Origin: Candidatus Aminicenantales bacterium
GTDB taxonomy: Bacteria; Acidobacteriota; Aminicenantia; Aminicenantales; UBA4085
DNA length: 64,000 nt
Assembly (NCBI GenBank): GCA_049697115.1
Contig: JBAVVD010000095.1
Coordinates: 15,797-79,796 of the forward strand
Reading direction: 5' to 3'
Of this stretch, positions 24,016 through 58,366 are shown in pieces. The translations under genes were made by a program, and so were the position numbers. The notes under the pieces were generated by a model. The model did no database searches, was not told the origin of the DNA, and was given only the letters and a program-made list of their open reading frames with translations. Numbering within the stretch: the first letter of the stretch is position 1; each line of letters starts with the position of its first letter.

Positions 24016-24277
24016 AAAGCCGGAACTCTTATGCGGTGCGGAGGCCGCCACATCCGGCGTTCCAACAGGGCCGGTTGTCGGAGGATATTTTTTATCTTCC
24101 GACTCCGCTTCCCGCGCAGAAGTTCAATTTGCGGACAAAAAAGATCCATCCAAATCCGTGATATCTGAAGGGCTAGGAGTATGTGGCGAAGAAGGCCTTG
24201 CAAAAAAGATCATTTGGCAGATGGGGATGTCTCAATTATAATAGATTTTCTAATAAGATTCTTTAAAGGAGGACGCC

Positions 24278-25354: not shown

Positions 25355-25368
25355 AAAAGGAGAAACAC

Positions 25369-26556
25369 ATGTCTCGATTAAATAGAAGAAACTTTATCGC
25401 CGCCTTCACATCCGGTGTTGTCGGACTGGGGCTGCCTAAAAGTATCAAAGCAGAGACAACAAAACTCGCTTCTCTCCAGAACCAGACCTCAACTCCCAGG
25501 ATCCGGAAGTTCAATCTCCTCGGAACAACCGGCCTGAAGATCTCTGATGTGAGCTGCGGCGCTATATCCCTTTTTGAGCCCAATGTCCTGAGGTATGCCT
25601 ATGAGTGCGGAGTAAACTATTTTGACACGGCCGAGGGCTATCTCCGGATGAAGGGCGAAGTTTACGTCAGCCAGGGATTGAAAGAGGTCAGAGACAAGGT
25701 CATCATCACCACCAAACATCCTTATGACTTCGACCAAAAAATTGATAAGGCCTCCATCCTCCGCCGGGTGGAAGCCAGTCTCAAGCGCCTCCAGACCGAT
25801 ACTGTTGATATCGCCATGGTCCATAACATCTCCGACCTTTCTCCCCTCCTCCAGAGTGAGGAAATGCTTTCCGCCTACGCACAGCTCAAACAGGAAGGCA
25901 AAATTCGCTTCACTGGATTCTCCACCCACAACCCCAAGCTCACGCTCAGGCAGGCCCTGGAAACAGACTTTGCCCAGGTCATCCTGTTTATTTACAGCCA
26001 TATGGAAGGCAGGGAAATCGAGCCACTGATCAAGGCCGTCCGGCAAAAAGGAATCGGCACTGTGGCCATGAAAATTTTTGCCGGAGGCATGCAGGACAAT
26101 CTCAAGGCTTTTATCAGCCCGGAAGTCAGCTATTCCCAGGCGGCCATTCGGTGGGTGATGACGAATCCGGATGTGGACTGCTGCATTCCCACCATGAGTA
26201 GCTATTCCCATGTGGAGGAGTATGTGGCGGCCTCAGGTCAATCGCTGAAAAGAGCGGATTTAAATGCTATTGCCAGCTATAGGAAACAGGCCGGACCTCT
26301 CTACTGCCGCGTGAGCTGCCAGAAATGCCTGCCCGCCTGCCCGCATCAGGTCGCCATCAATGAAGTCCTCCGCTATGCCATGTACTTTGAAAACTACAAG
26401 ATGGAAAAGGATGCCGTCAGCCACTATGCGGATCTCGACAACAGCCGGAAACCCTTGATCTGCTCTTCCTGTTCCGGCTACTGCGAGAGCTCCTGCCCTT
26501 ACGGGCTTAAAATCAAGCAGCGGCTCATCCATTCCCACGAGATTCTCACGGGATAA
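25369..26556 (+). CDS. Tat-exported aldo/keto reductase with C-terminal Fe-S (ferredoxin-like) cysteine cluster
   Basis: Twin-arginine motif RRNFIAA, an AKR core (…GVNYFDTAEGY…), and a C-terminal tail CRVSCQKCLPACP…CSSCSGYCESSCPYG. Confidence 0.7.
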   Translation: MSRLNRRNFIAAFTSGVVGLGLPKSIKAETTKLASLQNQTSTPRIRKFNLLGTTGLKISDVSCGAISLFEPNVLRYAYECGVNYFDTAEGYLRMKGEVYVSQGLKEVRDKVIITTKHPYDFDQKIDKASILRRVEASLKRLQTDTVDIAMVHNISDLSPLLQSEEMLSAYAQLKQEGKIRFTGFSTHNPKLTLRQALETDFAQVILFIYSHMEGREIEPLIKAVRQKGIGTVAMKIFAGGMQDNLKAFISPEVSYSQAAIRWVMTNPDVDCCIPTMSSYSHVEEYVAASGQSLKRADLNAIASYRKQAGPLYCRVSCQKCLPACPHQVAINEVLRYAMYFENYKMEKDAVSHYADLDNSRKPLICSSCSGYCESSCPYGLKIKQRLIHSHEILTG

Positions 26557-26600
26557 ACGGCCGATGAATGGGTGGGATAGATTCTCGAGCTGGAGAAATA

Positions 26601-27338
26601 ATGGTTAAAATGACTTTTCCTTTTTGGCTCATAACCATCGGGCTTACTCTTCTGGGAGCCCGTCTCCAGGCCTTTGAGGAAGACATCATTTCAACCAGCC
26701 AAGGCGACCTGAGAATAACGCTCATCGGTCACGCAACGGTGATGTTCACATTCGGAGGTAAGACTATTTATGTGGACCCCATTTCAAGTCTGGCCGACTA
26801 TTCTCAATTCCCCAAGGCCAACCTCATCCTTATCACTCATGACCACGGAGACCATCTGGATCCGAAAGCCATCCAGACTCTGCGCATGCCGGAATCAAGC
26901 CTCATCTACTCAGAGAAATGCGCTGAAAAAGTCCCGAATGGAATCATCATGAAAAACGGCGATAAAAAGACCCTTCAGGGTATTGTTATAGAAGCCGTGC
27001 CCGCCTACAACATCGTCCACATGAGAAGCGAGCGCGTCCCTTACCATCTCAGGGGACTGGGGAATGGATATGTCCTCACTTTCGCTGATAAAAGAGTCTA
27101 TGTGGCCGGCGACACGGAAAACATCCCTGAGATGAAAGAGATCAAGAATATTGATGTGGCTTTTCTTCCGATGAACCTCCCTTATACCATGTCGCCGGAA
27201 ATGGCGGCGGATGCAGCCAGGATGATCCGGCCAAAGGTCCTCTACCCTTATCACTATGGCAACACAAACACCTCCACGCTGGTGGAGTTGCTCAAGGACA
27301 CAAAAGAAATCGAGGTTCGGATCCGGAAAAGGAAATAA
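26601..27338 (+). CDS. Secreted MBL-fold metallo-hydrolase
   Basis: Signal peptide, HxHxDH motif ILITHDHGDHLD. Start taken at ATG 26601 with a GGAG RBS (track ORF begins at 26568). Confidence 0.7.
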   Translation: MVKMTFPFWLITIGLTLLGARLQAFEEDIISTSQGDLRITLIGHATVMFTFGGKTIYVDPISSLADYSQFPKANLILITHDHGDHLDPKAIQTLRMPESSLIYSEKCAEKVPNGIIMKNGDKKTLQGIVIEAVPAYNIVHMRSERVPYHLRGLGNGYVLTFADKRVYVAGDTENIPEMKEIKNIDVAFLPMNLPYTMSPEMAADAARMIRPKVLYPYHYGNTNTSTLVELLKDTKEIEVRIRKRK

Positions 27339-27416: not shown

Positions 27417-27962
27417 ATGTCGAACTCAGTCAAAAAAACCATTTCGTGCCGCCATAAATGGGAAATTGTGAACATGCGCAGCGGATATCTGGTGATTGAG
27501 GGATGTTTCCACTGCCGGAACCGAATTTCTTTCTTTTCGGAAGAGCCGGTTCCTCCCATTGATGATTATCAAGAAGGGGAGCATTTTTGGAGCTACCTGA
27601 GCAGTTATCAGGCATCCAAGTTCGACCTTAAATGCAAAAAATGTGCGAAAGACGTCCGCCTCCCTGACGTTATGGCCATTATGTTGTGTCAAAGTTGTAA
27701 TCCCGAGTGCGGCGTTTTCCAATTGGGCGCGCAGCCGCAGAATCAGAAGGCATGGATCTATGTGGCTCTCTGCGCGAATTCCTCTCATGCATCCGGACAC
27801 TGTATCTCGACAGAAGGGATTCATGCCTTGAACGAATATTTCAATTACGGTCTGCGAGATCCTTTAAAGAAAATCATCGTTGCCCCCTGCCGGCTGCGCA
27901 AATCCGTCGATACATGTCATGGAATTATTCTCGCGGATGTCGGATTGACAGAGTTATATTGA
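27417..27962 (+). CDS. Cysteine-rich hypothetical protein (two zinc-ribbon-like CxxC pairs)
   Basis: CRHKW…CFHCRN and CKKCAK…CQSCNPEC. No family assignment. Confidence 0.35.
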   Translation: MSNSVKKTISCRHKWEIVNMRSGYLVIEGCFHCRNRISFFSEEPVPPIDDYQEGEHFWSYLSSYQASKFDLKCKKCAKDVRLPDVMAIMLCQSCNPECGVFQLGAQPQNQKAWIYVALCANSSHASGHCISTEGIHALNEYFNYGLRDPLKKIIVAPCRLRKSVDTCHGIILADVGLTELY

Positions 27963-28092: not shown

Positions 28093-28419
28093 ATGAAAAT
28101 CTCCGAACTTGTCGAAAAGGCCGGCCTCAAGGCATTTAACGAATCCAGCGATAAGGACATCCTTGGAGTTTACATCTCCGATATGGTGAGTGACATCATC
28201 AACATCACGGAAGGAAATCTGCTGGTGACCTTGCAGATGCACAAGAATATCATTGCGGCGGCAAATCTTGTCGATGTCGCGGCCATCGTATTTTGCCGGA
28301 GCAAGACGCCGCCAGACGATGTGGTCGCGCTCGCCAATAAAGCCGGTATCGAGTTACTGGGATTCGACGGAGACACCTGGACGCTGGCGAAGAAGCTTTA
28401 TGAGCTCGGATTAAGGTAG
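28093..28419 (+). CDS. Small DRTGG-domain-like protein (accessory protein typical of hydrogenase/NuoEF-type operons)
   Basis: 108 aa. The pattern …GNLLVTLQMHKNIIAAANLVDVAAIVFCRSKTPPDDVVALANKAGIELLGF resembles DRTGG-domain proteins. A paralogue sits at 33449-33793. Confidence 0.4.
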   Translation: MKISELVEKAGLKAFNESSDKDILGVYISDMVSDIINITEGNLLVTLQMHKNIIAAANLVDVAAIVFCRSKTPPDDVVALANKAGIELLGFDGDTWTLAKKLYELGLR

Positions 28420-28492
28420 CGATTTGCTCTTCCATTCCTGTCCATCTCTACAGAGAGGGCAGGAAAATTCTAGGAATTATCAAGGTTAAACC

Positions 28493-31003
28493 ATGGCGCG
28501 AACAGAACCACGAACACTGGCAATGATGATGAACCACCGAAAGGTGTATTTTCCGGAAGGCGTCACCGTCCTCCGGACGGCCGAGCTGAACGGCGTGGAC
28601 ATTCCCTCTCTCTGTTCCCACAAAGATCTTTCCCCCTACGGCGGATGCCGATTGTGTATGGTGGAAATCGAGGGAATGCGCGGCTATCCTTTAGCCTGCA
28701 ACACGATAGCTCAGGAAGGAATGAAAGTCCTGACAGATACAGATATGCTGCGGGAACTCCGGAAAGAAATCTTGAAACTTATCCTCTGCGAGCATCCCTC
28801 GAGCTGCCTGGTGTGCGGAGAAAAAACCGAGTGTCAGGATTATCAAGGAACGATCCGGAAGACCGGCGTAACGACGGCGTGTCGATTTTGCCCAAATGAC
28901 GGCCAATGCGAACTGCAGAGCCTGGTTGAAAAAATCGGTGTGACGGAAATCGACCATCCCATACTTTATCATGGCTATGAGCCTGAGCACGACGATCCCT
29001 TTTACGACAGGGACTACAATATCTGTATTCTCTGCGGCCGGTGTGTTCGGATGTGTCAGGAAGTTCGGGGGACCGCGGTGCTTGCCTTCACCTCGCGGGG
29101 TCCTCAGGTCAAGATTGCCCCGGCCTTTGGCCGAAGCCATCGGGAAGCGGGATGCGAATTCTGCGGGGCATGCGTGGATGTCTGCCCGACAGGCGCCCTT
29201 GTGGATAAGGCCTCCAAGTGGGACGGCCGGCCGGATGGATTTCATGTTTCCACATGTCCGTTCTGTGCGCTGGGATGTCAGATTGAGCTGTTTTATAAAA
29301 ACCGCAGGCTGTCCAAAGCCAAAGCCCATATGGATCCGGAAGTCAATGACGGACAGCTCTGTGTGAAAGGACGCTTCTGTCTGCCGGAAGTCACTCACCA
29401 TTTCGAACGGGCAAAAAAGCCCATGCTCCAAAAAGGGGATTATTTCCGGGAAGTCTCCTGGGAGGAAGCCTTGGAAAAAGTGGCCGAAGAGCTCAAAGGA
29501 ATTCAATCGGATGAGTTTCTCATGCTGGTTTCTCCGGATCTCACCAACGAGAGTTTGTATGCCGCTCAAAAATTCGTTCGGGACGGCCTGGAAAGTCCGA
29601 ACATCGACTCCACGGCGAGACTGGAACTTGCAGGCGGATTGGGATTTTGGTCAAAACTGTTCTCATTGCCCATCTCCATCAAGAATATCGCCAGAGCCGA
29701 TGTGATCCTTGCCGTCGGACTCGACAGCCGGTTCAATTTTTCGGTGGTCGGGACAAAGGTTCGTCGAGCGCTCGATGTGGGTGCCCAATTGGTGACCATC
29801 GATCCTCTCGACAGCAATCTGGCCCGCTATACCGATCACTGGCTCCGTCCTGTGCCGGGCCAGGAAGGACGGCTTCTGAAGTTTTTCGCCGATCGTCTGG
29901 CCGGCCGAAACAACAATCCTTCCTCTGTCGCTCAAGAAACATCCGTGGATATTCCACTTTTGGAACGGGCGTTCGCAATTCTTTCTTCCGGCGACGATTT
30001 GACGGTGATTATCGGCCCCCGGATATTTCATTATGAAAACAGCGAATCTTTCGTGGACGGATTAATGAGCCTGGCCAAACGCCCGAATACGAATTTCATT
30101 CCCCTTTTCTTCGGCGCCAATACGCGCGGGGCCCTTGAGTTGGGCGTATTTCCGGAACTCGGTTCAGATGGAACTTCCCGCTTTGGGAAGGGATCAGGTT
30201 TGTCCGAAATAATCAACGGATCAAAGCGTTATAAAGTGATCTATCTGGTCGGCGATGTCCCGTTTTTTGAAAGGCCGAACTGCGATTTCTTAATCGTTCA
30301 GGATATTTATCTGCCGCCCTTCAAAGTCGATGCATTTCTTCCGGCATCCTCTTTTGCGGAGGCCGGTGGGACTTTTGTGAATATTGAAGGACGGATTCAG
30401 GAGATCGTCCAGATCGAAGATCCGCCCGAAGGCCAGGTAACGGGATTTATGCGTCCCGATTGGCTGATCTTTTCTGAGCTGGCCAATGTTCTCAATGTTC
30501 ATCCGCTGAATTACAAAACTTGGAAGGATGTCTTCAAGGAAATTCAAAAATCCATGCCGAATTTTCCAGAACGGATCAACCGGAAGCCCCGACGGATGAA
30601 CGCTTTCGATGATCCGGCCATCCACAAATCAACCGATGGACAAAAGCCGGACGGAGATTTCTGGATGGTGGCCGAACCGGGCGGCTACCGCCATCGAGGG
30701 ATCGATATCTCGTCGAAAGTCGGAGGTTTGAGCGAATTGGCCCTGGAAGAAGGATTCCGAATGCACCCCGAAGACATCGAGTCCCTTGGTTTGAAAAGCG
30801 GCGATCCGATCACTCTATCGCTCGGCAAGAGTAAGCGGCGCGTCACGGGCACTGTCAAATCAGACATCGAATGTCCGAAAGGGGCAATTTTCTTCTCCCG
30901 GCCAGTTATCTTGGGCGGTCTGAAACATCGACGTGAACTTCTTCCCTTATACATTCTCCAAAAAAATCCGATCCGCGTTCACATCTTGAAGACGGCGACC
31001 TGA
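28493..31003 (+). CDS. NuoG/formate-dehydrogenase-alpha-like Fe-S and molybdopterin-fold subunit lacking the catalytic Sec/Cys-His pair
   Basis: N-terminal 2Fe-2S (CSHKDLSPYGGCRLC), a His-x3-Cx2Cx5C cluster (HPSSCLVCGEKTEC) and two further Cx2Cx2Cx3CP motifs. The FDH-like domain begins TCPFCALGCQIELF…DGQLCVKGRF. At the position aligned to E. coli FdhF …ARVUHGP the sequence is …ARLELAG (no Cys/Sec or His). A C-terminal molybdopterin-dinucleotide-binding-like barrel follows. Confidence 0.7.
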   Translation: MARTEPRTLAMMMNHRKVYFPEGVTVLRTAELNGVDIPSLCSHKDLSPYGGCRLCMVEIEGMRGYPLACNTIAQEGMKVLTDTDMLRELRKEILKLILCEHPSSCLVCGEKTECQDYQGTIRKTGVTTACRFCPNDGQCELQSLVEKIGVTEIDHPILYHGYEPEHDDPFYDRDYNICILCGRCVRMCQEVRGTAVLAFTSRGPQVKIAPAFGRSHREAGCEFCGACVDVCPTGALVDKASKWDGRPDGFHVSTCPFCALGCQIELFYKNRRLSKAKAHMDPEVNDGQLCVKGRFCLPEVTHHFERAKKPMLQKGDYFREVSWEEALEKVAEELKGIQSDEFLMLVSPDLTNESLYAAQKFVRDGLESPNIDSTARLELAGGLGFWSKLFSLPISIKNIARADVILAVGLDSRFNFSVVGTKVRRALDVGAQLVTIDPLDSNLARYTDHWLRPVPGQEGRLLKFFADRLAGRNNNPSSVAQETSVDIPLLERAFAILSSGDDLTVIIGPRIFHYENSESFVDGLMSLAKRPNTNFIPLFFGANTRGALELGVFPELGSDGTSRFGKGSGLSEIINGSKRYKVIYLVGDVPFFERPNCDFLIVQDIYLPPFKVDAFLPASSFAEAGGTFVNIEGRIQEIVQIEDPPEGQVTGFMRPDWLIFSELANVLNVHPLNYKTWKDVFKEIQKSMPNFPERINRKPRRMNAFDDPAIHKSTDGQKPDGDFWMVAEPGGYRHRGIDISSKVGGLSELALEEGFRMHPEDIESLGLKSGDPITLSLGKSKRRVTGTVKSDIECPKGAIFFSRPVILGGLKHRRELLPLYILQKNPIRVHILKTAT

Positions 31004-31063
31004 AAAATAAGAATATATATTCATGGAAACGCGATGGGTTCGGCCGATGGATGGAGGACAGGA

Positions 31064-31897
31064 ATGTATGAAATCATTGAACGACGGATGATTGTTCCGA
31101 ATTTGCACGAATTCAAAGTGAAGGCTCCGGCCGTTGCCGAAACCGTGAAACCCGGCCACTTCATCATCGTCCGGGCGGATCAATATGGCGAGCGTATTCC
31201 TTTGTCCGTCGCGGACTGGGATCAGGAAGCCGGCACGGTGACATCCATTTTTATGCAGGTGGGCGGATCCACCGGCAAGCTGGCTCGTCTGAAATCCGGC
31301 GATACCATTCCAACATATGTTGGGCCTTTGGGGAAAGAAACCGTGATCGATAATTTCGGCACGGTTCTTTGCATCGGCGGATGCTACGGGATCGGATCGA
31401 TCTACCCCATCGCACGGGCGCTGAAGGAAGCCGGGAATAAAGTTTATGTCCTGCTGGAAGCCCGAAGTTCGTTTCTCCTGTACTGGCAGAAGAGGTTCAC
31501 CGGAGTCTCGGATGAAGTATTTGTTATCACCCGGGATGGCACTGCGGGGGAAAAAGGTCATGTGAGCAAGATCCCTGAGTTGATTGAACACGCAGGAATC
31601 ATTCCCCATCTGGTCATCGTGAACGGGTGCACGTTCCTGATGATGCGGGTTTCTCAGGTGACAAAGCCTTTTGGATGGAAAACGATCGTCAATATGAATC
31701 CGATAATGATCGATGGAACGGGGATGTGCGGAGTCTGTCGACTCTCGGTCGGAGGAAAAATGAAGTTCGCCTGCGTCGATGGGCCCGATTTTAACGGCCA
31801 TGAAATCGATTGGGCAGAATTCCTGGCGCGGCGCAAGAGTTACAACCCGGAAGAGGTCGATCCGCTCCGCCGTTCGAGCTGCCGGTCTCATTTCTGA
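31064..31897 (+). CDS. NfnA/SudB/PyrK-like FAD plus 2Fe-2S oxidoreductase subunit
   Basis: Ferredoxin-NADP-reductase-like fold with C-terminal CGVCRLSVGGKMKFACVDGPDF. Start placed at ATG 31064 after a GGAGG RBS (track ORF begins at 31034). Confidence 0.7.
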   Translation: MYEIIERRMIVPNLHEFKVKAPAVAETVKPGHFIIVRADQYGERIPLSVADWDQEAGTVTSIFMQVGGSTGKLARLKSGDTIPTYVGPLGKETVIDNFGTVLCIGGCYGIGSIYPIARALKEAGNKVYVLLEARSSFLLYWQKRFTGVSDEVFVITRDGTAGEKGHVSKIPELIEHAGIIPHLVIVNGCTFLMMRVSQVTKPFGWKTIVNMNPIMIDGTGMCGVCRLSVGGKMKFACVDGPDFNGHEIDWAEFLARRKSYNPEEVDPLRRSSCRSHF

Positions 31898-31935
31898 TTC
31901 GATGGAAGACGCCCGCGCAGAGGAGGTTGGCCAGA

Positions 31936-33354
31936 GTGAGTGAGGAAAAACAGGAAAAGAAAAAATTGGATCTGAATCGTCGGTCCATGCCGAAACAGAA
32001 TCCATGGGAGCGGGTCAAGAATTTTGACGAAGTCGCCCTGGGATACTCCGCCGCGGTCGCTGTGGAAGAAGCCCGTCGCTGTTTGCAATGTCCGAAGCCG
32101 CTCTGCAATCAAGGGTGTCCAGTAGGGATTGATATCCCCGCATTCATTAAATGTATTGTCGACGGGGACTTCGGCTCCGGAATCAAAAAAATCAAGGAGA
32201 CCAATGCCCTTCCGGCGATTTGCGGCCGGGTCTGTCCTCAAGAAGAGCAGTGCGAAAAGACGTGCGTCCTGGCCAAAAAGAAGGCCCCGATCGCCATCGG
32301 CCGGCTGGAGCGGTTTCTTGCCGATTGGGAAGCGGCGGAAGGAAAAATCGAAGTTCCGGATATGGCTCCCAAAACCGGGAAGAAGGTAGCTGTCGCCGGA
32401 GCGGGCCCCGCAGGCATAACCGTCGCCAACGACCTCATCATCCTCGGACATGATGTGACCATCTTCGAAGCTCTGCATGAATGCGGCGGCGTCTTGATTT
32501 ACGGCATTCCGGAGTTCAGGCTTCCCAAAGCCATCGTGAACCGTGAAGTGGAATACGTCAAGAGCCTGGGAGTGAAAATCCATACGGATTTCGTCGTGGG
32601 AAAAACCAAGTCCGTCGACCGACTCCTTGAGGAATACGATGCCCTCTTTATCGGCTCGGGCGCCGGACTTCCCTGGTTCATGGAAATCCCCGGCGAAAAC
32701 CTCAATGGCGTCTTTTCGGCCAACGAATACCTCACCCGGGTGAATTTGATGAAGGGTTTTCGATTTCCGGAGTATGAGACGCCCGTGAAACGTCCCCCTC
32801 GAGTGGCGGTTATCGGAGGCGGTAACGTGGCCATGGACTCGGCGCGAACAGCCGTCCGGCTGGGCGCTGATGAGGCCCATTTGGTCTACCGCCGCAACAA
32901 GACGGAATTGCCCGCGCGCGCCGAGGAAGTGGAGAATGCGGAAGAAGAAGGAGTGATTTTCGATCTTCTCACATTGCCTGTGCGTCTCATCGGCGATGCC
33001 AACGGCTGGATCAAAGAGATGGAATGCCTGAAAATGGAATTGGGGGAACCCGATGAATCGGGACGGCGAAGACCGGTTCCCATTAAAGGGTCAAATTTTC
33101 TCATGCCGTTTGATGCGGTCGTCATCGCCATCGGTAACAGCCCGAATCCGATGATTCCCATGACCACTCCTGGATTGGAGATCAGCAAAAAAGGGGGCAT
33201 CGTGACTCATCCGGAGACGGCCCGGACCTCAAGACCAGATATCTGGGCCGGCGGGGATATTGTCAGAGGCGCGGCGACGGTGATCAGCGCGATGGGTGAT
33301 GGGAGGATTGCCGCGTCATCCATACATAAATGTCTCATAAACAAAGGAATTTAG
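31936..33354 (+). CDS. NfnB/SudA/GltD-like NAD(P)H-dependent oxidoreductase subunit (2x[4Fe-4S] + FAD + NAD(P)-binding)
   Basis: CLQCPKPLCNQGCPVGIDIP and CGRVCPQEEQCEKTC clusters, then GxGxxG VAVAGAGPAGI and a second dinucleotide fold. Probable GTG start at 31936 after GAGGAGG (track ORF begins at 31810 and overlaps nfnA). Confidence 0.8.
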   Translation: MSEEKQEKKKLDLNRRSMPKQNPWERVKNFDEVALGYSAAVAVEEARRCLQCPKPLCNQGCPVGIDIPAFIKCIVDGDFGSGIKKIKETNALPAICGRVCPQEEQCEKTCVLAKKKAPIAIGRLERFLADWEAAEGKIEVPDMAPKTGKKVAVAGAGPAGITVANDLIILGHDVTIFEALHECGGVLIYGIPEFRLPKAIVNREVEYVKSLGVKIHTDFVVGKTKSVDRLLEEYDALFIGSGAGLPWFMEIPGENLNGVFSANEYLTRVNLMKGFRFPEYETPVKRPPRVAVIGGGNVAMDSARTAVRLGADEAHLVYRRNKTELPARAEEVENAEEEGVIFDLLTLPVRLIGDANGWIKEMECLKMELGEPDESGRRRPVPIKGSNFLMPFDAVVIAIGNSPNPMIPMTTPGLEISKKGGIVTHPETARTSRPDIWAGGDIVRGAATVISAMGDGRIAASSIHKCLINKGI

Positions 33355-33448
33355 GCCGCATGGAACTTATGGTTATATGCTTATTAACGATGTTCAGGAC
33401 AGGCCAAAAGTCTGGCTCATGGATTTCATGCGCAGCTCAGGAGCACAC

Positions 33449-33793
33449 ATGACATTGCACGAGATCAAAGAGATTCTCCAATGTGAGGTTCTTGCCGGAG
33501 AAGAGAATCTTGCGATAGACGTCCAACAGGTCGTGGCCTCAGATGGAATGAGTGAAATCCTGGCGTTTGCCAGATCCAAAGAGCTGATGATTACCGGTCT
33601 GACCAACATCCAATCCATCCGGACGGCGGATGTCGCCGGCGTCAGCGCCGTCATTTATTGTCGAGGAAAACGTCCCGATAAGGCCGTGATCGAATATGCC
33701 AAAAAGAAAGCGATTCCGATCCTGATGACGAAGATGGTCATGTTTGATATCTGCGGAATTCTTTATGCCAGAGGCCTCAAGGGCGTCTCATAA
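33449..33793 (+). CDS. Small DRTGG-domain-like protein (second copy)
   Basis: MTLHEIKEILQCEVLAGEENL…MITGLTNIQSIRTADVAGVSAVIYCRGKRPDKAVIEYAKKKAIPIL is colinear with the 28093 protein. Start chosen at the internal ATG with a GGAG RBS (track ORF begins at 33377). Confidence 0.4.
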   Translation: MTLHEIKEILQCEVLAGEENLAIDVQQVVASDGMSEILAFARSKELMITGLTNIQSIRTADVAGVSAVIYCRGKRPDKAVIEYAKKKAIPILMTKMVMFDICGILYARGLKGVS

Positions 33794-34230
33794 TGGTCAT
33801 GGAACTACTACGAGAACGATTCGAAATTCAGGGAAGGAATTTCGATAAGGCCGGCGAGATCGCCACCGAAATCAAAGTGATTCTTAAAGATCTCGGCATT
33901 CACGCCGCGAATATCCGGCGTTCCGTGGTCGTGGCGTTTGAGGCCGAGATGAATGTGGTCATGTTTGCCGACCGGGGAACACTGACCCTCATCCTGACCG
34001 ATGAAGAAGTCTGCCTGGAGATTACAGACGAGGGGCCGGGAATCCCGGACATTGAGCTGGCGTTTCAGCCCGGATATTCCACGGCCTCAGACGAAATGCG
34101 CTTAATGGGTTTTGGCTTTGGTATGGGACTGCCGAATATGAAAAAGAACTCCGACGCGTTTCAAATCGAATCAGAGGTAGGAAAGGGGACGTCGGTCTTT
34201 GCCAGAATAAAATTAAATGCCAATGACTGA
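33793..34230 (+). CDS. Histidine-kinase-like ATPase (anti-sigma-factor/Ser-kinase-like, HATPase_c) small protein
   Basis: G1 box EITDEGPGIPD and G2-like GFGFGMGLP. About 145 aa, as in accessory genes of NADH-dependent hydrogenase operons. Confidence 0.6.
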   Translation: MVMELLRERFEIQGRNFDKAGEIATEIKVILKDLGIHAANIRRSVVVAFEAEMNVVMFADRGTLTLILTDEEVCLEITDEGPGIPDIELAFQPGYSTASDEMRLMGFGFGMGLPNMKKNSDAFQIESEVGKGTSVFARIKLNAND

Positions 34231-35512
34231 ATTAAAGCACGGATTTAAAATCGACACGGACAAGTGCACAGGAAGAATGCACTGCATGCGCGCCTGTCCG
34301 ACGCGGGCCATCCGGGTGAAAAACGGCAAAGCGCGTCTGATCCAGGCGCTCTGCATCGACTGCGGCTCATGTCTGCAGGCATGCCCCACGGGAGCCATCA
34401 CGGCAACGACGATCACCTTTGCCGAACTGGACAGGTTTAAGTTCAAGGTTGCGGTGGCCTCGCCAGCGCTGTTCACCCAATTCGGTATCCATATTTCACC
34501 CGCCCAAGTCGGCAGAGCTCTGTTGGACCTTGGATTTGACGCCGTCTGGGAATACGCCGTCGACATTGAGCTGATCGACCAGGCGATTATGGATTCCGTC
34601 AAGAAATGGCCCGGCCCATTTCCCCTGATCTCCAGCTCCTGTCCCGTTGTCGTCCGATTGGTCCAGGTCGCGTACCCCAGTATGGTCGAACAGCTCATTC
34701 CTATCGAATCCCCGCGAGAAATTGCCGGCCGGGAACTGAAACGGAAATACTCCCAGGAGTTGGGCCTGGATCCGGAAGACATTGCCGCGATATATATCAC
34801 GCCCTGCCAGGCTAAAACGATTTCCATCCTTCAACCCGCTGAGGGCGTAGAAAGTTATCTGGATGGATCGGTCGGCATTTCTGAAATTTATAATGACATT
34901 CTTTATAAACTGCGAAAAGATGCGCATAATCAAGAATCCCCGAAAGACTTTTCCATCTCCGGCGAATTGTTTCACGGAGGAGTGATGGAAGGGGAATTTC
35001 CCCGCCTGTCCCGGGAGCATTATCTTCCGCTGACCGGCCTGACGGATATCATTAAAGTTTTCGACGACATTGAAATGGGAAAAATCAGAAATATTGAATT
35101 TTTGGAATGCCATGCCTGCCAGGGGGGATGCATCGGGGGAAACCTGACGGTCGAAAATCTTTATGTGGCGCGCAGCAAAAATCTCCATTTGATCGCCAGT
35201 ATCACGCCGCCCGATTCGACCTTCAAGAATGAGGTTGAACGGCGTTATGCCATTGAAAATTTTTCATTAAGACGACCTTTGAAACCCCGGATCATTGAAG
35301 AGGGCGTCTCGGAACTGCGCGAGCGCGTCACAAGACGAAAGAGAGCGGATGAACTTTTGAAAAGCCTTCCCCTGCTGAATTGCGGCTTGTGCGGCGCCCC
35401 GACGTGCAAGAACCATGCCGAAGACGTGGCCGCTCTCAGGGCGGACTTGAGGGAATGCGTTTTTCTCTCGCCCGACCGGATTGACCAATTGAGAAGAATC
35501 CATAAAAAATAA
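34217..35512 (+). CDS. [FeFe]-hydrogenase H-cluster-domain protein of the putative sensory/regulatory type (HydS-like, no PAS domain)
   Basis: Two N-terminal ferredoxin motifs (CTGRMHCMRACP, CIDCGSCLQACP). H-domain motifs L1 SSSCPVVV (single Cys instead of TSCCPxW), L2 TPCQAK, L3 EFLECHACQGGCIGG. C-terminal Cx2Cx4Cx16C (CGLCGAPTCKNHAEDVAALRADLREC). Confidence 0.75.
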   Translation: MPMTELKHGFKIDTDKCTGRMHCMRACPTRAIRVKNGKARLIQALCIDCGSCLQACPTGAITATTITFAELDRFKFKVAVASPALFTQFGIHISPAQVGRALLDLGFDAVWEYAVDIELIDQAIMDSVKKWPGPFPLISSSCPVVVRLVQVAYPSMVEQLIPIESPREIAGRELKRKYSQELGLDPEDIAAIYITPCQAKTISILQPAEGVESYLDGSVGISEIYNDILYKLRKDAHNQESPKDFSISGELFHGGVMEGEFPRLSREHYLPLTGLTDIIKVFDDIEMGKIRNIEFLECHACQGGCIGGNLTVENLYVARSKNLHLIASITPPDSTFKNEVERRYAIENFSLRRPLKPRIIEEGVSELRERVTRRKRADELLKSLPLLNCGLCGAPTCKNHAEDVAALRADLRECVFLSPDRIDQLRRIHKK

Positions 35513-35537
35513 TCGCTCCACGAAGGAGAAGAAAGAG

Positions 35538-36038
35538 ATGACGGCTAAGTTATCACGCGGAGGTCCGGACAACACCCATGAGAGGCGAAAGGATCTGATT
35601 CCTCTTTTACAAAAGGTCCAGAAGACGGATGGATATCTCTCTCCGGAATCCGTAGAGACCATTTCCCGGAAGCTCAAGGTTTCGGAAAATGAAATTTACG
35701 GAGTGGCCACATTCTACGCGCAATTCCGATTTCAACCTCCGGGGAAGTACAATATCAAAGTTTGCCTGGGGACTGCTTGCCATGTCGGAGGCGGCCATAA
35801 TTTTATGGAGGTCATGAAAATAGATAAGAACATCGGCCACGGGGAGACAACGCCGGACGGGACATTCAGCCTTGAACGAGTCGCCTGTTTGGGTTGTTGT
35901 GCCCTGGCTCCGGTGGTCGTCGTCAACAACGAGGTCCATGGAAAAATGAACCGTGTCACATTTATGAAACTCCTGGAATCCCTGGACCCTTCCCGGAAGG
36001 TTGAAGAACCGCCGGAAACATCGAAATCGCCGGAATGA
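35538..36038 (+). CDS. NuoE/HndA-like thioredoxin-fold [2Fe-2S] subunit
   Basis: CLGTACHVGGG…CLGCCALAP signature of the 24-kDa subunit family. Confidence 0.8.
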   Translation: MTAKLSRGGPDNTHERRKDLIPLLQKVQKTDGYLSPESVETISRKLKVSENEIYGVATFYAQFRFQPPGKYNIKVCLGTACHVGGGHNFMEVMKIDKNIGHGETTPDGTFSLERVACLGCCALAPVVVVNNEVHGKMNRVTFMKLLESLDPSRKVEEPPETSKSPE

Positions 36039-36136
36039 CTCACCGGCCGTAACCGTATACCGATGAGCACATCAATGCCAGTCAGAAAAAGTCAAGCGGA
36101 TCGGAGGCGTATCAGAGATCCGATTAAGGAGCGGCC

Positions 36137-38005
36137 ATGAGCAGTGATCATCCGAAAATCGACACACGGCCCGGAGGAGACGGCAGGGAGGCGACCCTTG
36201 GGAATAAAATCCGGGTTCTTGTCTGCGAAGGCACCGGATGTGTGTCTTCGAAATCGCCGGACATTCGAGCCGCTCTCGAAAAGGCCGTGCGTCAAATCGG
36301 CTTGAGTGAAAAGATTGAAGTGGGATTTACCGGCTGCCACGGCTTCTGCCAGATAGGCCCTATCGTGGTCGTCGAACCCGAGGGGATTTTCTATTGCAAA
36401 GTGAACCCCAGGGATGCCAAAGATATTGCCGAATCCCACCTCGTCGGCGGGGAACCGGTCAAACGCCTTTTTTACCGCCACCCGGTGACCAAAGAGAGTG
36501 TCCCTTATTATCGGGACATCATGTTCTATAAAAAACAGCAGCGAGTGATCCTGCGCAACTGCGGCAAGATCAACCCGGAAAAAATATCGGATTATGAAGC
36601 TCTGGGCGGTTATCAAGCGCTCCGAAAAGCCGTTCTCAAGATGGGCCCTGAACAGGTTATCGAAGAGGTTCGTCGTTCCGGCCTGCGCGGACGCGGCGGG
36701 GCCGGCTTCCCAACCGGAGTCAAATGGAATTTTTGCCGGAAGCAGCCCGGGGACATCAAGTATGTCATTTGCAATGCCGACGAAGGCGATCCTGGAGCCT
36801 TTATGGATCGCAGTATTCTTGAGGCCGATCCCCATACGGTAATTGAAGGGCTTATTATCCTTGGCTTTGCCATCAACGCCCGCCGGGGTTTTTTCTACTG
36901 CCGCGCGGAATACCCTTTGGCCGTCAAAAGGGTAGGCATCGCCCTTGAGCAGGCGCGCCATAAAGGCTTTCTGGGGAAAAACATCTTCGGATCGGGCTTC
37001 GATTTCGATGTCGAAATATTTGAAGGAGCCGGGGCGTTCGTCTGCGGAGAAGAAACCGCTCTGATCCGTTCCATCGAGGGTTCAAGGGGAATGCCGCGCA
37101 GCCGCCCGCCCTTTCCGGCCGAAAAAGGACTCTGGGGGAGGCCCACTGTCATCAACAACGTCAAGACTCTGGCTTCCGTCCCCGTCATTATCAATCAGGG
37201 AGCCGACTGGTTTGCATCCATCGGGACGGAAACCAGTAAAGGAACGGCCGTCTTTGCGCTGACGGGAAAGATCGCCAATTCCGGACTCGTCGAAGTGCCA
37301 ATGGGGGCTCCCCTGTCACACATCATTTACGATATCGGAGGAGGAATTCCTAATAAGAAAACCTTCAAAGCCGTCCAGACCGGCGGGCCGTCGGGAGGAT
37401 GTCTGCCGGCCACACAGCTCGAACTTCCGATTGATTTCGATTCCTTGCAGAAAGCGGGTTCGATGATGGGCTCCGGAGGTCTGGTTGTGATGGATGATGA
37501 TACGTGCATCGTGGATGTGGCGCGGTTCTTCCTCTCCTTCATCCAGAGCGAATCATGCGGCAAATGCGTCCCCTGCCGGATTGGCACTCGTCTTATGGTG
37601 GACATTTTGGAGAAAATCATGGCCGGAAAGGGAACGGAACAGGACCTGGTGCGACTTGAAAAGCTGGCTAACCTGGTGAAGTTCGGCTCACTCTGCGGCC
37701 TCGGACAGACCGCTCCCAATCCCGTCCTCACAGCGCTCCGATACTTCCGGTCCGAATTTATCGCCCATATCGTCGACAAACGATGCCCGGCGGCCGTCTG
37801 CCGCGAACTCGTCACGTTTCGCGTGATTCCAGAACGGTGCACGGGCTGTCAGTTGTGCGTTAAGGTCTGTCCGACGAAAGCCATTTCCGGACCCCGATCT
37901 CAACCGCATAATCTCGACCAGACCAAATGCATCAAATGCCGCGCGTGTTATGAAATTTGTCGGTTCGATGCCATCGCCGGCGAGGCCATCGTCATCGTAT
38001 CTTAG
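36137..38005 (+). CDS. NuoF/HndC-like NAD(P)H-binding flavoprotein subunit with N-terminal 2Fe-2S domain and C-terminal 2x[4Fe-4S]
   Basis: GLRGRGGAGFPTGVKW (FMN/NADH site), the 4Fe-4S N3-type CxxCxxC…C region, and C-terminal CTGCQLCVKVCP / CIKCRACYEICRF ferredoxin motifs. Confidence 0.85.
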   Translation: MSSDHPKIDTRPGGDGREATLGNKIRVLVCEGTGCVSSKSPDIRAALEKAVRQIGLSEKIEVGFTGCHGFCQIGPIVVVEPEGIFYCKVNPRDAKDIAESHLVGGEPVKRLFYRHPVTKESVPYYRDIMFYKKQQRVILRNCGKINPEKISDYEALGGYQALRKAVLKMGPEQVIEEVRRSGLRGRGGAGFPTGVKWNFCRKQPGDIKYVICNADEGDPGAFMDRSILEADPHTVIEGLIILGFAINARRGFFYCRAEYPLAVKRVGIALEQARHKGFLGKNIFGSGFDFDVEIFEGAGAFVCGEETALIRSIEGSRGMPRSRPPFPAEKGLWGRPTVINNVKTLASVPVIINQGADWFASIGTETSKGTAVFALTGKIANSGLVEVPMGAPLSHIIYDIGGGIPNKKTFKAVQTGGPSGGCLPATQLELPIDFDSLQKAGSMMGSGGLVVMDDDTCIVDVARFFLSFIQSESCGKCVPCRIGTRLMVDILEKIMAGKGTEQDLVRLEKLANLVKFGSLCGLGQTAPNPVLTALRYFRSEFIAHIVDKRCPAAVCRELVTFRVIPERCTGCQLCVKVCPTKAISGPRSQPHNLDQTKCIKCRACYEICRFDAIAGEAIVIVS

Positions 38006-38370: not shown

Positions 38371-38446
38371 TGGCTCCTCGGGCAGGACTCGAACCTGCAA
38401 CCTATTGGTTAACAGCCAACCGCTCTGCCAATTGAGCTACCGAGGA
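38371..38446 (-). tRNA. tRNA-Asn (anticodon GTT), CCA encoded
   Basis: Reverse complement folds as a canonical cloverleaf: acceptor TCCTCGG/CCGAGGA, D-arm GCTC-AATTGGCA-GAGC, anticodon stem GTTGG/CCAAT with loop CTGTTAA, T-arm GCAGG-TTCGAGT-CCTGC, discriminator G, then CCA. Very close to E. coli tRNA-Asn. Confidence 0.85.
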
Positions 38447-39157: not shown

Positions 39158-40948
39158 ATGGCGACACCGCTTGAAAAATGGGTCGAAGAACAGGCCCGTC
39201 TCCTTCAGCCAAAAAGAATATACTGGTGCGACGGTTCCGAAGGTGAAGCCCGCCGGATGATCGAAATGGGATTGAAAGAAGAAGGAATCGGGGAGTACGG
39301 CATTTTCCATGAGCTCAACCATAAATCCTGGCCCAAATCCTATCTCCATCGCAGCCATCCCACGGATGTCGCCCGCACAGAACATCTCACCTTTGTCTGC
39401 CATCCGAACCGGGAGACCACAGGTCCCAACAACAACTGGATGGATCCACGGGAAGCCAAAGAGCTTCTGACAAAGCTCTCCACCGGCAGTATGAGCGGAA
39501 AAACAATGTACGTCCTCCCCTACATGATGGGCCATCCGGACTCTCCCTATGCCAAGGCCTGCGTCCAGTTGACAGATATTTCCTATGTGGCTGTGAGCAT
39601 GAGAATCATGACCCGGATGGGCAAAAATATCACGAAAAAAATCGGAAGCCGGGAAGATTTCGTTAAAGGCATTCATTCGGTCGGAAATTTCGATCCCAAC
39701 AAGCGCTTCATCATGCATTTTCCCGAGGACAGCCTTGTCTGGAGCATCGGCTCCGGCTATGGCGGGAACGCCCTGTTGGGAAAGAAGTGCTTTTCTCTGC
39801 GGATCGCCTCATGTCTGGGACTCAAACAGGGCTGGCTGGCCGAACACATGGTTATCATGGGCATCGAGGATGTGAAGGGAAATGTTACCTATGTCACGGC
39901 GTCCATGCCTTCGGCCTGCGGCAAGACAAACCTAGCCATGCTGGAATCGGCCCTTCCCGAATACAAGGTCTGGACGGTCGGCGATGATATTGCCTGGCTC
40001 AACATCGGTCCGGACGGCCGCCTGTATGCCATCAATCCGGAAGCCGGTTTCTTCGGGGTGGCTCCGGGGACATCGATGCAGACAAATCCCAATATGATAA
40101 GGACATTGAGGGCCTCGAATTTTTATCCCACGCTATTCACCAACACGGCCCTGGATCTGGATACAAATGAGCCGTGGTGGGAAGGGCTGGATGGCTCCCT
40201 GCCCATGAATCTTCTGGACTGGCAGGGCCGGCCGTGGGACAGCACTCTCAACACCAGGGCGGCACACCCGAACTCCCGTTTCACGGTCTCCCTGTATAAT
40301 TGCCCCACGCTCTCCAAAGAGTTTGACAATCCCCAAGGCGTTCCCATCTCCGCCATCATTCTCGGCGGACGCCGGTCCAGACTCATTCCTCTGGTCACAG
40401 AGGCCTTCCATTGGGACCATGGAGTATTTATGGGCGCAAGGACGGGCTCAGAGACAACGGCTGCGGCGGCAGGCAAGACTGGCGTTCTACGCCGAGATCC
40501 GATGGCCATGATTCCGTTCTGCGGCTACAATATGGGAGATTATTTCCGCCACTGGATCAACATGGGCAGGCTGCTTACACGCCCGCCGAGGATTTACACC
40601 TGGAATGCCTTCAGGGTTAATGAAGAAGGAAAATATCTCTGGCCGGGATTTGGCGAAAACATCCGGATCTTGAAGTGGATTATGGACAGAGTAAACGGCC
40701 GTGCCGGTGCCCAGGAAACCCCTTTAGGACTGATTCCGGACCTCAAAGATTTTAACGTGGACGGTCTGAGCATCCCAAAAGAGAACCTAAAAAATTTATT
40801 CGAGGTCAATCCTTCGGAGTGGCATGAAGAACTGAAGGAAATAAAAAATTTTCTGGGCCAATTCGGACGGCATCTTCCCTATGAAGTCCGGGATGAGTTC
40901 CACAGGCTTGCCCAGCGCCTGGCTCCAGAAAAGAATCTTTCCCTCTAA
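39158..40948 (+). CDS. pckG: Phosphoenolpyruvate carboxykinase (GTP)
   Basis: Full-length match to the GTP-PEPCK family, including the kinase-1a P-loop SACGKTNLAML and many family-specific blocks. Confidence 0.9.
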   Translation: MATPLEKWVEEQARLLQPKRIYWCDGSEGEARRMIEMGLKEEGIGEYGIFHELNHKSWPKSYLHRSHPTDVARTEHLTFVCHPNRETTGPNNNWMDPREAKELLTKLSTGSMSGKTMYVLPYMMGHPDSPYAKACVQLTDISYVAVSMRIMTRMGKNITKKIGSREDFVKGIHSVGNFDPNKRFIMHFPEDSLVWSIGSGYGGNALLGKKCFSLRIASCLGLKQGWLAEHMVIMGIEDVKGNVTYVTASMPSACGKTNLAMLESALPEYKVWTVGDDIAWLNIGPDGRLYAINPEAGFFGVAPGTSMQTNPNMIRTLRASNFYPTLFTNTALDLDTNEPWWEGLDGSLPMNLLDWQGRPWDSTLNTRAAHPNSRFTVSLYNCPTLSKEFDNPQGVPISAIILGGRRSRLIPLVTEAFHWDHGVFMGARTGSETTAAAAGKTGVLRRDPMAMIPFCGYNMGDYFRHWINMGRLLTRPPRIYTWNAFRVNEEGKYLWPGFGENIRILKWIMDRVNGRAGAQETPLGLIPDLKDFNVDGLSIPKENLKNLFEVNPSEWHEELKEIKNFLGQFGRHLPYEVRDEFHRLAQRLAPEKNLSL

Positions 40949-55296: not shown

Positions 55297-55302
55297 TGTC
55301 CG

Positions 55303-56565: not shown

Positions 56566-56569
56566 TTTA

Positions 56570-58365: not shown

Positions 58366-58366
58366 T

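Follow-up and report, generated by a model that had tools for sequence, protein, structure and literature searches.

Electron-bifurcating enzymes set the balance between NADH, NADPH, and ferredoxin in anaerobes. Here we describe a cluster of ten genes, g0 to g9, all on the plus strand of a 64,000-nucleotide (nt) stretch of the 82-kb contig JBAVVD010000095.1 (assembly GCA_049697115.1), part of a metagenome-assembled genome (MAG) from a Candidatus Aminicenantales bacterium; this whole stretch is called the window below, and all coordinates refer to it. We read the cluster as two modules: five genes (g2, g3, g4, g8, and g9) would encode a split, Nfn-type enzyme of the BfuABC family in which NfnAB is the module for the third substrate, and the other five (g0, g1, g5, g6, and g7) would encode putative H2-responsive regulators. 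We give this two-module reading about an even chance of being right. A preliminary description of the same DNA had treated nine of these genes as one assembly that could not be assigned to a described complex. Conserved gene order in related loci separates them instead into a five-gene enzyme module and a five-gene module that includes the overlooked g0, and the enzyme maps onto the published BfuABC family, next to Nfn-Bfu (Schut et al., 2022; PMC9304861). A Stn/Nfn-like enzyme acting on NADH, NADPH, and ferredoxin, which that description had suggested, is the reading that best fits the protein sequences. The two roles that it had offered as alternatives probably hold side by side, with the formate dehydrogenase (FDH)-like protein g2 as an iron–sulfur (Fe–S) wire (BfuA) and the HydS-like protein g7 as a likely regulator.

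Results

The products of g8 and g9 resemble bifurcating BfuBC pairs

Domains were assigned by Pfam and NCBIfam searches of the window proteins. The product of g9 (36137–38005), a NuoF/HydB-like FMN and NAD(H) subunit, combines Complex1_51K and NADH_4Fe-4S domains with an N-terminal, thioredoxin-like 2Fe-2S_thioredx domain (residues 24–99) and a C-terminal 2x4Fe-4S domain (Fer4, 563–612). It aligned over its full length (residues 25–614) to the NiFe-HydB subunit of A. mobile (7t2r_B) with 858 bits. The next matches in the PDB were HydB of A. woodii (798 bits) and the corresponding subunits of three transhydrogenases, NfnB of Caldicellulosiruptor saccharolyticus (Csac, 753 bits), NfnB of Thermococcus sibiricus (Tsib, 738 bits), and StnB of Sporomusa ovata (Sov, 728 bits). 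The top matches, from 858 to 680 bits, were all demonstrated bifurcating enzymes and were aligned through both cluster domains, whereas non-bifurcating NuoF homologues covered only the core of g9 and reached at most 417 bits.

The gene g8 (35538–36038) encodes a NuoE/HydC-like 2Fe-2S subunit (PF01257, 158 bits) and lies immediately upstream of g9 in all the related loci described below. According to the sequence features that define the BfuABC family (Schut et al., 2022; PMC9304861), g9 corresponds to BfuB and g8 to BfuC, and g2 is the homologue of BfuA. As judged from these alignments, g8 and g9 are a BfuBC-type bifurcating pair, and the earlier proposal that the NuoE/NuoF pair is of the bifurcating type was borne out by the full-length match to A. 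mobile NiFe-HydB.

g2 has lost the molybdenum site and has an additional cysteine motif

The product of g2 (28493–31003) has the NuoG/FDH-alpha fold, with matches to the 2Fe-2S (Fer2_4), NADH-G_4Fe-4S_3, Fer4_Nqo3, 4Fe-4S dicluster, molybdopterin Fe4S4, and Molybdopterin domains and no match to PF01568 in the Pfam search. Aligned with FdsA of R. capsulatus, the molybdenum (Mo) ligand Cys386-His387 (in CARVCHSPTG) falls on TARL-ELAGG in g2. A cysteine is found at this position in none of 44 g2 homologues (0/44), so the replacement of the catalytic Sec/Cys-His pair read earlier from the ARLELAG segment stands. With 194 bits against TIGR01591 (cut-off 666) and without the Sec/Cys-His pair, g2 does not belong to the Mo- or tungsten-dependent FDH alpha subunits. 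We also considered an atypical Mo enzyme with a ligand other than cysteine and rejected it, because the residues around the aligned position vary among the 44 homologues and none there is conserved.

All Fe–S ligands of g2 are invariant in the same 44 sequences. They make up one 2Fe-2S site and four canonical 4Fe-4S sites, namely a His-type motif (H101, C105, C108, and C114), two ferredoxin-type motifs, and the motif of the Mo domain. By sequence, g2 is an Fe–S wire only, whose FDH-like domain has lost its metal site. A comparable loss is described for NfnA of Csac, where the Fdh-like part has an incomplete pterin-binding site and electron cryo-microscopy revealed no pterin density (PMC11829005).

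One feature sets g2 apart. The NuoG-type motif is duplicated (28790–28910, residues 101–139): H101xxxC105xxC108x5C114 is followed by C130xxC133x5C139-ELQ. Both copies, and H166 in EHDDPF, are invariant in the 44 homologues, whereas FdsA and A. mobile HydA have a single copy; the extra CxxCx5C motif (C130, C133, and C139) is absent from FdsA. Over its whole length g2 matched FdsA-type FDHs best among PDB entries, followed by Csac NfnA (204 bits) and A. mobile NiFe-HydA (201 bits). The alignment to Csac NfnA is interrupted, with residues 10–122 of g2 corresponding to 5–122 of NfnA and 133–301 to 568–735; the alignment to Sov StnC has the same form. The NfnL-like insert of about 445 residues in Csac NfnA and Sov StnC is absent from g2, and the second copy of the cysteine motif falls where these proteins carry it.

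g3 and g4 are close homologues of NfnA and NfnB

The piece missing from g2 is present in the cluster as a separate gene. The product of g4 (about 31936–33354; the start is approximate and the open reading frame (ORF) opens at 31810) is an NfnB (NfnL)/GltD-like NADPH and FAD subunit with two 4Fe-4S sites, and it aligned to residues 100–497 of Csac NfnA. It scored 578 bits with TIGR01316, above the cut-off, 566 bits with NfnB of T. maritima (4ylf_B), and 520 bits with NfnI-L of P. furiosus, compared to 268–333 bits with the NfnL-like domains of Nfn-Bfu proteins. Its eight cluster cysteines are invariant in 38 sequences. One of the NfnB 4Fe-4S sites is reported to be non-conserved in StnC (Kremp et al., PMC7483475); g4 retains both.

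The adjacent g3 (31034–31897, probable true start 31064) encodes an NfnA (NfnS)-like FAD and NAD(H) subunit with a 2Fe-2S site (PRK06222, 330 bits; 258 bits to the NfnI small subunit of P. furiosus, 5jca_S, and 223 bits to T. maritima NfnA, 4ylf_A). The DGTGMCGxCR motif, which contains C232 and C235, is conserved. Across 43 sequences, C117 and C199 are invariant, and so are C232, C235, and C247, three of its seven cysteines. Together, g3 and g4 have the predicted cofactor set of NfnAB/NfnSL, with two 4Fe-4S clusters, FAD, and an NADPH domain in one protein and FAD/NAD and 2Fe-2S sites in the other. From the way in which g2 and g4 share out the sequence of Csac NfnA, we conclude that the two genes represent the fused BfuA subunit of the characterized Nfn-Bfu transhydrogenase in two pieces.

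Conserved gene order separates two modules

The preliminary description had called for a survey of gene order in related genomes. We scanned genomes with g2, which gave 55 loci, and metagenomes with a g7 alignment, from which the best 80 loci were kept, and mapped the window proteins onto these 135 loci and their 10-kb flanks. The clustering is conserved: the same genes are grouped in the 55 genome and 80 metagenome loci, and their association is not due to chance. It is found commonly in metagenomes from sediment and fresh water, as well as in MAGs of Aminicenantes, Planctomycetota, and Actinomycetota.

Two arrangements dominate. Order A, found in the window, is g0-g1-g2-g3-g4-g5-g6-g7-g8-g9, and the commoner order B is g0-g1-g8-g9-g2-g3-g4-g5-g6-g7. 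Three loci labeled Actinomycetota (L040–L042) carry g8-g9-g2-g3-g4 and g0-g1-g5-g6-g7 as two divergent blocks on opposite strands, and three further loci (L038, L053, and L054) have the core g8-g9-g2-g3-g4 only. These divergent and core-only loci show that the enzyme genes g8, g9, g2, g3, and g4 are separable from a portable block made up of g0, g1, g5, g6, and g7. Within the enzyme module, g3-g4 follow g2 in every locus with long enough, unmasked, and well-assembled sequence past g2, and the order g2-g3-g4 is kept in both arrangements and under Aminicenantes, Planctomycetota, Actinomycetota, Chloroflexota, and Desulfobacterota labels.

The BfuBC pair is more variable. Among close Aminicenantes relatives, g9 shares 69–84% identity with the window protein in order A and 54–60% in order B, while g2 shares about 64–80% in both, and the pair falls into two lineages. 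BfuB of order-A Aminicenantes is of the window type, with four N-terminal 2Fe-2S cysteines; two of these N-terminal cysteines are missing from BfuB of order-B Aminicenantes, as in Csac NfnB. The best PDB match of one order-B protein (L001) was BfuB of Csac NfnABC (758 bits). Window-type BfuB (76–77%) also occurs in some Planctomycetota loci of order B (L029, L044, L123, and L124). This distribution suggests that the BfuCB pair has been replaced or transferred.

Two further variations were seen around the core. In the Phycisphaerae loci L030 (970–4149) and L045, BfuB is a fusion protein whose C-terminal half is GltD/NfnL-like, with g2, NfnA, and NfnB still encoded downstream; that of L030 has 1059 amino acids and the domains Complex1_51K, NADH_4Fe-4S, Fer4_20, and Pyr_redox_2, the last two replacing the usual 2x4Fe-4S tail. 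In the Desulfocapsaceae MAG locus L053 (15206–21075), genes resembling group-4 NiFe-hydrogenase and complex I lie on the same strand about 300 nt past the core. They encode NuoH-like, NuoK-like, antiporter-like, fused NuoC-NuoD/NiFe-large-subunit-like, and NuoB-like proteins and are not found in the related locus L054.

g7 is a putative sensory [FeFe] hydrogenase of a subfamily dedicated to this cluster

The product of g7 (34217–35512) has an N-terminal 2x4Fe-4S region, an H-domain (Fe_hyd_lg_C), and a PF04060 FeS domain; an exact Cx2Cx4Cx16C motif lies at its C-terminus, and it has no PAS domain. Catalytic group A enzymes carry the motifs TSCCP, MPCxxKxxE, and ExMxCxxGCxxG, in place of which g7 has SSSCP, TPCQAKTIS, and ECHACQGGCIGG, and it reached 100 bits with TIGR02512 (cut-off 406). 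The earlier view that the sole H-cluster protein is of the sensory type and not of group A therefore agrees with both its motifs and its score. The changes include C299 to S in the proton path (SSSCP), M353 to T (TPCQAK), and M497 to H (ECHACQGGC). In 11 diverse homologues the residue before the ligand cysteine varies (S, Y, T, M, or N) and T195 is nearly invariant. Across phyla, the four H-cluster cysteines and the 2x4Fe-4S relay at the N-terminus do not vary. The features of the 'putative sensory' M2e/group D, among them the loss of Cys299 and a Ser or Thr in place of M353, were defined by Land et al. with TamHydS as the type (PMC8163306), and g7 matches all of them, so that it is assigned to this class by feature definition; no group C or D enzyme entry was among its matches in the PDB.

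The best 80 metagenome homologues of g7 share 54–81% identity, and all those with enough flanking sequence sit in this cluster, to which the g7 subfamily is thus dedicated. The metagenome scan had been aimed at group D sensors beside real hydrogenases, and its best 80 loci contained only this cluster.

The genes that travel with g7 encode putative regulators

Directly downstream of the NfnB gene, g5 (33377–33793, probable true start 33449) encodes a DRTGG-domain protein (PF07085, 34.8 bits). In each locus where g5, g6, and g7 were all detected, the three genes adjoin one another. A second DRTGG-domain protein of 108 amino acids is encoded by g1 (28093–28419; PF07085, 28.4 bits), which comes first after g0 in both gene orders; the two proteins are distant paralogues with 28% identity.

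The product of g6 (33793–34230; 145 amino acids) is a stand-alone GHKL (histidine-kinase-like) ATPase that consists of a HATPase_c domain only (PF02518, 44.8 bits). The N box, the G1 box (DEGPG), and the G2 box (GFGFGMG) are present in its translation. It has no HisKA/DHp phosphotransfer domain and so differs from two-component sensor kinases. The nearest NCBIfam model was that of the SpoIIAB anti-sigma F factor (TIGR01925), at 53 bits and below the cut-off of 135, a score that does not establish membership; g6 shows a weak resemblance to serine kinases of the SpoIIAB/RsbW type, which are the closest family.

The tenth gene, g0 (27417–27962), begins the cluster 130 nt before g1, with which it co-travels; it is invariably directly upstream of the first DRTGG gene in related loci. 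It encodes a Cys/His-rich protein of 181 amino acids that had no match in Pfam, PDB-sequence, or fold searches. The NCBI call, which starts at a later Met and gives 162 amino acids, would remove C11 and H13, which are conserved in 35/36 homologues. The family looks small, with 201 matches among 223 word-sharing candidates, all named 'hypothetical'.

Limits of the cluster and neighboring genes

An ORF check of the window found all nine genes from g1 to g9 on the plus strand. They are separated by 22–98 nt except for the overlapping pairs g5/g6 and g6/g7, so that the close-packed, co-directional arrangement reported before was reproduced in its ORFs, coordinates, and spacing as well as in its Pfam and NCBIfam domains. 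The NCBI gene calls have later starts for g3 (31064), g5 (33449), and g6, and the product names given there are generic ('molybdopterin-dependent oxidoreductase', 'NuoF', 'ATP-binding protein').

At the 3' side the cluster is closed by a convergent tRNA-Asn (GTT) gene on the minus strand (38371–38446), 366 nt past the stop of g9 and the sole Rfam or tRNA match in the window. This is a better marker than promoter and terminator predictions, whose counts between 27300 and 39300 were near the shuffled expectation and gave no useful boundary. Upstream of g0 lie four close-packed, co-directional genes (23266–27338, plus strand), two of them without a Pfam match. The other two encode an aldo/keto reductase, in which a 4Fe-4S dicluster domain was matched only weakly and below threshold (25369–26556, plus strand), and an MBL-fold protein (26568–27338, plus strand). 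We considered these two as members of the cluster and rejected them, g0 being the sole conserved family upstream in related loci.

The preliminary description had raised the possibility of two well-known, independent operons with a catalytic hydrogenase elsewhere on the contig. In the 64-kb window, g7 is the only H-cluster protein, NfnAB has no paralogue, and no hydEFG-like gene was found among the ORFs scanned. At the window edge (61885–63471, minus strand), a protein of 528 amino acids weakly matches a radical SAM domain (39 bits); it has no obvious likeness to HydE or HydG. The only paralogues of the cluster proteins in the window are canonical complex I NuoE, NuoF, and NuoG on the minus strand, which are short and of the non-bifurcating type. 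They belong to a run of NuoB, C, D, E, F, G, H, and I-like genes (52193–59304, minus strand) in which NuoF has 420 amino acids and no extra cluster domains and NuoG has 519 amino acids. The genome accordingly has an ordinary NADH module besides the Bfu-type pair. A gene for a GTP-dependent phosphoenolpyruvate carboxykinase lies just downstream of the cluster (39158–40948, plus strand), and one for a malic enzyme lies at a distance of about 12 kb (49813–51159, minus strand). Both are tied to C3/C4 and NAD(P)H metabolism, and neither has a conserved linkage to the cluster in related loci.

Discussion

A proposed split Nfn-type bifurcating enzyme

The third substrate of the enzyme would be NADP(H). 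NADPH would reduce the FAD of NfnB (g4), from which electrons could leave through the two 4Fe-4S clusters into g2 and pass on to the BfuBC core. There they would be bifurcated to NAD+ at the FMN of g9 and to ferredoxin at its C-terminal clusters, or the whole sequence may run in reverse. The NADPH-binding function of NfnL would thus be supplied in trans by g4, accompanied by its usual partner g3. The extra cysteine motif of g2 is a candidate entry cluster for electrons from g4 because it lies at the former fusion point. In Csac NfnABC the route is FAD-A7-A6-A3-A2-A1-B1 (PMC11829005).

Several arguments favor a physical partnership between NfnAB and the Bfu proteins. Since g2 is a BfuA without a catalytic domain, a third substrate needs extra subunits, and no candidate other than NfnAB is present throughout. 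The association of NfnAB with g2 persists across two BfuBC lineages, and the order-B BfuB of L001 is similar to that of an Nfn-type enzyme. In the window, nfnAB and the regulatory genes lie between bfuA and bfuCB, an arrangement that by analogy may indicate one complex; Schut et al. applied the same argument from sandwiched genes to Codh-Bfu and Mbh-Bfu (PMC9304861). Finally, Stn and Nfn are otherwise nearly mutually exclusive (PMC7483475; PMC9304861), and the joint occurrence of Stn-like and Nfn genes in a single operon points to partners rather than to redundant enzymes.

Several observations weigh against the two-module reading. The proteins g3 and g4 are much closer in sequence to stand-alone NfnAB than to fused NfnL-like domains, and since they retain every cofactor ligand they could act by themselves on free ferredoxin. 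Among the proteins of the putative regulatory module, no domain for DNA binding or any other output was recognized. The C-terminal cluster of TamHydS did not respond to H2, and the sensor role of group D is itself unproven (PMC13104023). The taxonomy labels of MAGs are unreliable, which makes the number of phyla sharing the cluster approximate.

The first of these observations leads to the alternative that the cluster encodes independent enzymes that are merely co-expressed, with a free NfnAB using soluble ferredoxin and a BfuABC-like complex using another redox protein, a membrane complex, or no further partner. We consider this unlikely. By sequence g3 and g4 are bona fide NfnAB with every ligand intact, and separate redox enzymes with related functions are often co-transcribed. 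The membrane genes resembling group-4 NiFe-hydrogenase and complex I in L053 could also provide another partner for the Bfu proteins, but they are absent from its relative L054. A BfuABC with a non-catalytic BfuA and no extra subunit would have no third substrate, and no such stand-alone enzyme has been described (PMC9304861). The adjacency of g2, g3, and g4 in every locus that could be judged, in both gene orders and with two BfuBC lineages, and the colinearity of g2 with the BfuA of Nfn-Bfu exactly around the NfnL fusion point, argue against two enzymes that share only their expression.

If NfnAB and BfuABC do form one complex, g3 would give the FAD of NfnB a second exit, to NAD+, and two bifurcations in series become conceivable. 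The low-potential electrons of NfnB would then bypass free ferredoxin, enter the Bfu core by way of g2, and undergo a second bifurcation there, and the net reaction by our arithmetic would be approximately 4 NADPH + 3 NAD+ + Fd(ox) = 4 NADP+ + 3 NADH + Fd(red, 2e-). We regard as rather improbable this speculative form of the two-module reading, in which the FAD of NfnB and the BfuBC FMN/Fe–S 'flavobicluster' operate in one complex that is set post-translationally by H2 through the regulatory module. At physiological potentials of −380 mV for NADPH, −280 mV for NADH, and −500 mV for ferredoxin (Schut et al., PMC9304861), the energy balance that we calculated for the series would favor NADPH oxidation with strong ferredoxin reduction and would be awkward for NADPH synthesis, which also counts against it.

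A putative H2-responsive control device

The five genes g0, g1, g5, g6, and g7 may form an H2-responsive control device for a redox-balancing enzyme. The group D [FeFe] hydrogenase g7 would sense H2, and the GHKL ATPase or serine-kinase-like protein g6, the DRTGG proteins g1 and g5, and the Cys-rich g0 would relay the signal. As the module has no recognizable DNA-binding domain, its output may act on proteins rather than on transcription. Control by H2 would make sense in the physiology of a fermenter, in which H2 pressure determines whether the re-oxidation of NADH and ferredoxin is possible. A 'hisK' gene is likewise present in the NiFe-Bfu operon of A. mobile and is not part of the holoenzyme.

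In a different reading, g7 would be the catalytic subunit, docked on the dead-end branch of g2, of a multimeric Hyt/Hnd-like enzyme that couples H2 to NAD(P)+ and ferredoxin. The four cysteines of its H-cluster and its 2x4Fe-4S relay are indeed invariant across phyla, the 4Fe-4S ligands in the Mo domain of g2 are likewise invariant though without obvious use, and g7 lies directly upstream of bfuC-bfuB in the window. Separate H-cluster subunits are also known from the FdhFeFe-Bfu (Hyt) complex (PMC9304861), and TamHydS does turn over H2 (PMC8163306), though slowly. Gene order speaks against such an enzyme. The core lacks g7 in L038, L053, and L054, and in L040–L042 the two are divergent. Where genes for the GHKL ATPase and a DRTGG protein were detected, g7 always adjoins them. 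M353 is replaced in low-activity group D enzymes (PMC8163306), as it is in g7 (M353 to T), which furthermore lacks Cys299 of the proton path and has a variable residue before its ligand cysteine. A catalytic role of g7 is therefore distinctly improbable.

In a further reading, the third substrate would not be NADP(H): the NfnA/NfnB-like pair would act on polysulfide or sulfur, for example, or in a glutamate-synthase-like reaction, with the Bfu core supplying or accepting the electrons. This is very improbable. Members of the family were first described as sulfide dehydrogenase, the NADPH-dependent sulfur oxidoreductase NsoABC of T. litoralis is a Stn homologue (PMC7483475), and the NCBIfam names for g3 and g4 are generic, but g4 scores 566 bits with the structurally and biochemically defined NfnB of T. 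maritima and passes the TIGR01316 cut-off, and the cluster contains no glutamate synthase large subunit and no sulfur-metabolism gene.

Implications

If the two-module reading is correct, the Bfu family gains a class in which a complete, canonical NfnAB is the module for the third substrate, and the enzyme would be the second proposed, after Bam-Bfu, with two different bifurcating devices. Should the serial stoichiometry also hold, NADPH could drive ferredoxin to an unusually low potential, or one ferredoxin could support four NADPH. Should the serial reading with H2 control hold, this would be the first defined signaling pathway of a 'sensory' [FeFe] hydrogenase, and it would control an enzyme that is not a hydrogenase.

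To our knowledge, the signaling partners of group D have not been defined. For the question of how groups C and D signal, and of their very status as sensors, the cluster offers a conserved and portable set of candidate partners (g0, the two DRTGG proteins, and the GHKL ATPase) together with a non-hydrogenase target. As a general caution, which concerns no particular study, surveys that count any Fe_hyd_lg_C protein as H2-evolving may overstate H2 production by these lineages.

Comparison with known systems

All protein families of the cluster are known; in the literature that we searched, neither their combination nor the split architecture has been described before. No cluster of Bfu with NfnAB, of NuoEFG with NfnAB, or of DRTGG proteins with a hydrogenase is described there, which is weak evidence because most subscription journals lay outside the search.

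SfrAB of Geobacter sulfurreducens, a soluble NADPH-dependent Fe(III) reductase that we liken to the cluster by description only, is an unfused pair of a GltD/NfnB-like NADPH protein and a NuoG/FDH-like Fe–S protein. SfrA and SfrB reportedly purify together, in work attributed to Kaufmann and Lovley in 2001, which would be a precedent for the binding of g4 to g2. Unlike the cluster described here, SfrAB has neither a BfuBC core nor NfnA. According to Kremp et al., each half of StnC has its homologue in one of the SfrAB subunits (PMC7483475).

The regulatory genes recall the HydABC operons with an upstream HydS, such as that of TamHydS in Thermoanaerobacter mathranii, which share the architecture of g7, an adjoining gene for a kinase-like ATPase, and a BfuBC-type enzyme encoded downstream (PMC8163306). 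Here, however, the enzyme linked to the sensor is not a hydrogenase, and two DRTGG proteins and g0 take the place of an AraC regulator, which is lacking. For a Bfu core in series with a second flavin-based bifurcating module there is a proposed precedent in Bam-Bfu, which contains a class II benzoyl-CoA reductase and in which the second bifurcator is HdrA (Schut et al., PMC9304861). Our cluster would have NfnSL in place of HdrA; it has no tungsten enzyme, and the metabolism is unrelated. With the classical NfnAB/NfnSL of T. maritima (4ylf) and P. furiosus (5jca), g3 and g4 share close homology, their Fe–S ligands, and their flavin and nicotinamide domains. Classical nfnAB is a two-gene unit with a free-ferredoxin branch, whereas g3 and g4 follow a BfuA-type gene and share their cluster with BfuBC.

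The closest characterized enzymes are the Stn/NfnABC (Nfn-Bfu) transhydrogenases of Sporomusa ovata, Caldicellulosiruptor saccharolyticus, and Thermococcus sibiricus (PDB 8oh5, 9bov, and 9n5u). Their BfuC and BfuB core shows the domains found in g8 and g9 (728 bits to g9 for Sov, 753 for Csac, and 738 for Tsib). Their BfuA likewise combines an N-terminal 2Fe-2S domain with an Fdh/NuoG-like domain that lacks a pterin site, and an NfnL-type FAD/NADPH module belongs to the same gene cluster. Our cluster departs from them in several respects: its NfnL is unfused and is a canonical NfnB that keeps both 4Fe-4S sites, NfnA is added with its own FAD and NAD(H) site, five structural genes replace those of a heterotrimer, g2 has the extra invariant CxxCx5C motif, and a hydrogenase-type sensor module is present. 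Schut et al. list Nfn-Bfu as Type 1 only, with NfnL fused into BfuA; no class of theirs has NfnA and NfnB as separate subunits, and 17 of their BfuB clades are left without a function (PMC9304861). Because the fusion that defines Type 1 is absent, the enzyme predicted here is not to be filed as Stn/NfnABC proper, and by its sequence we class it as a Type 2/3-style 'NfnSL-Bfu'.

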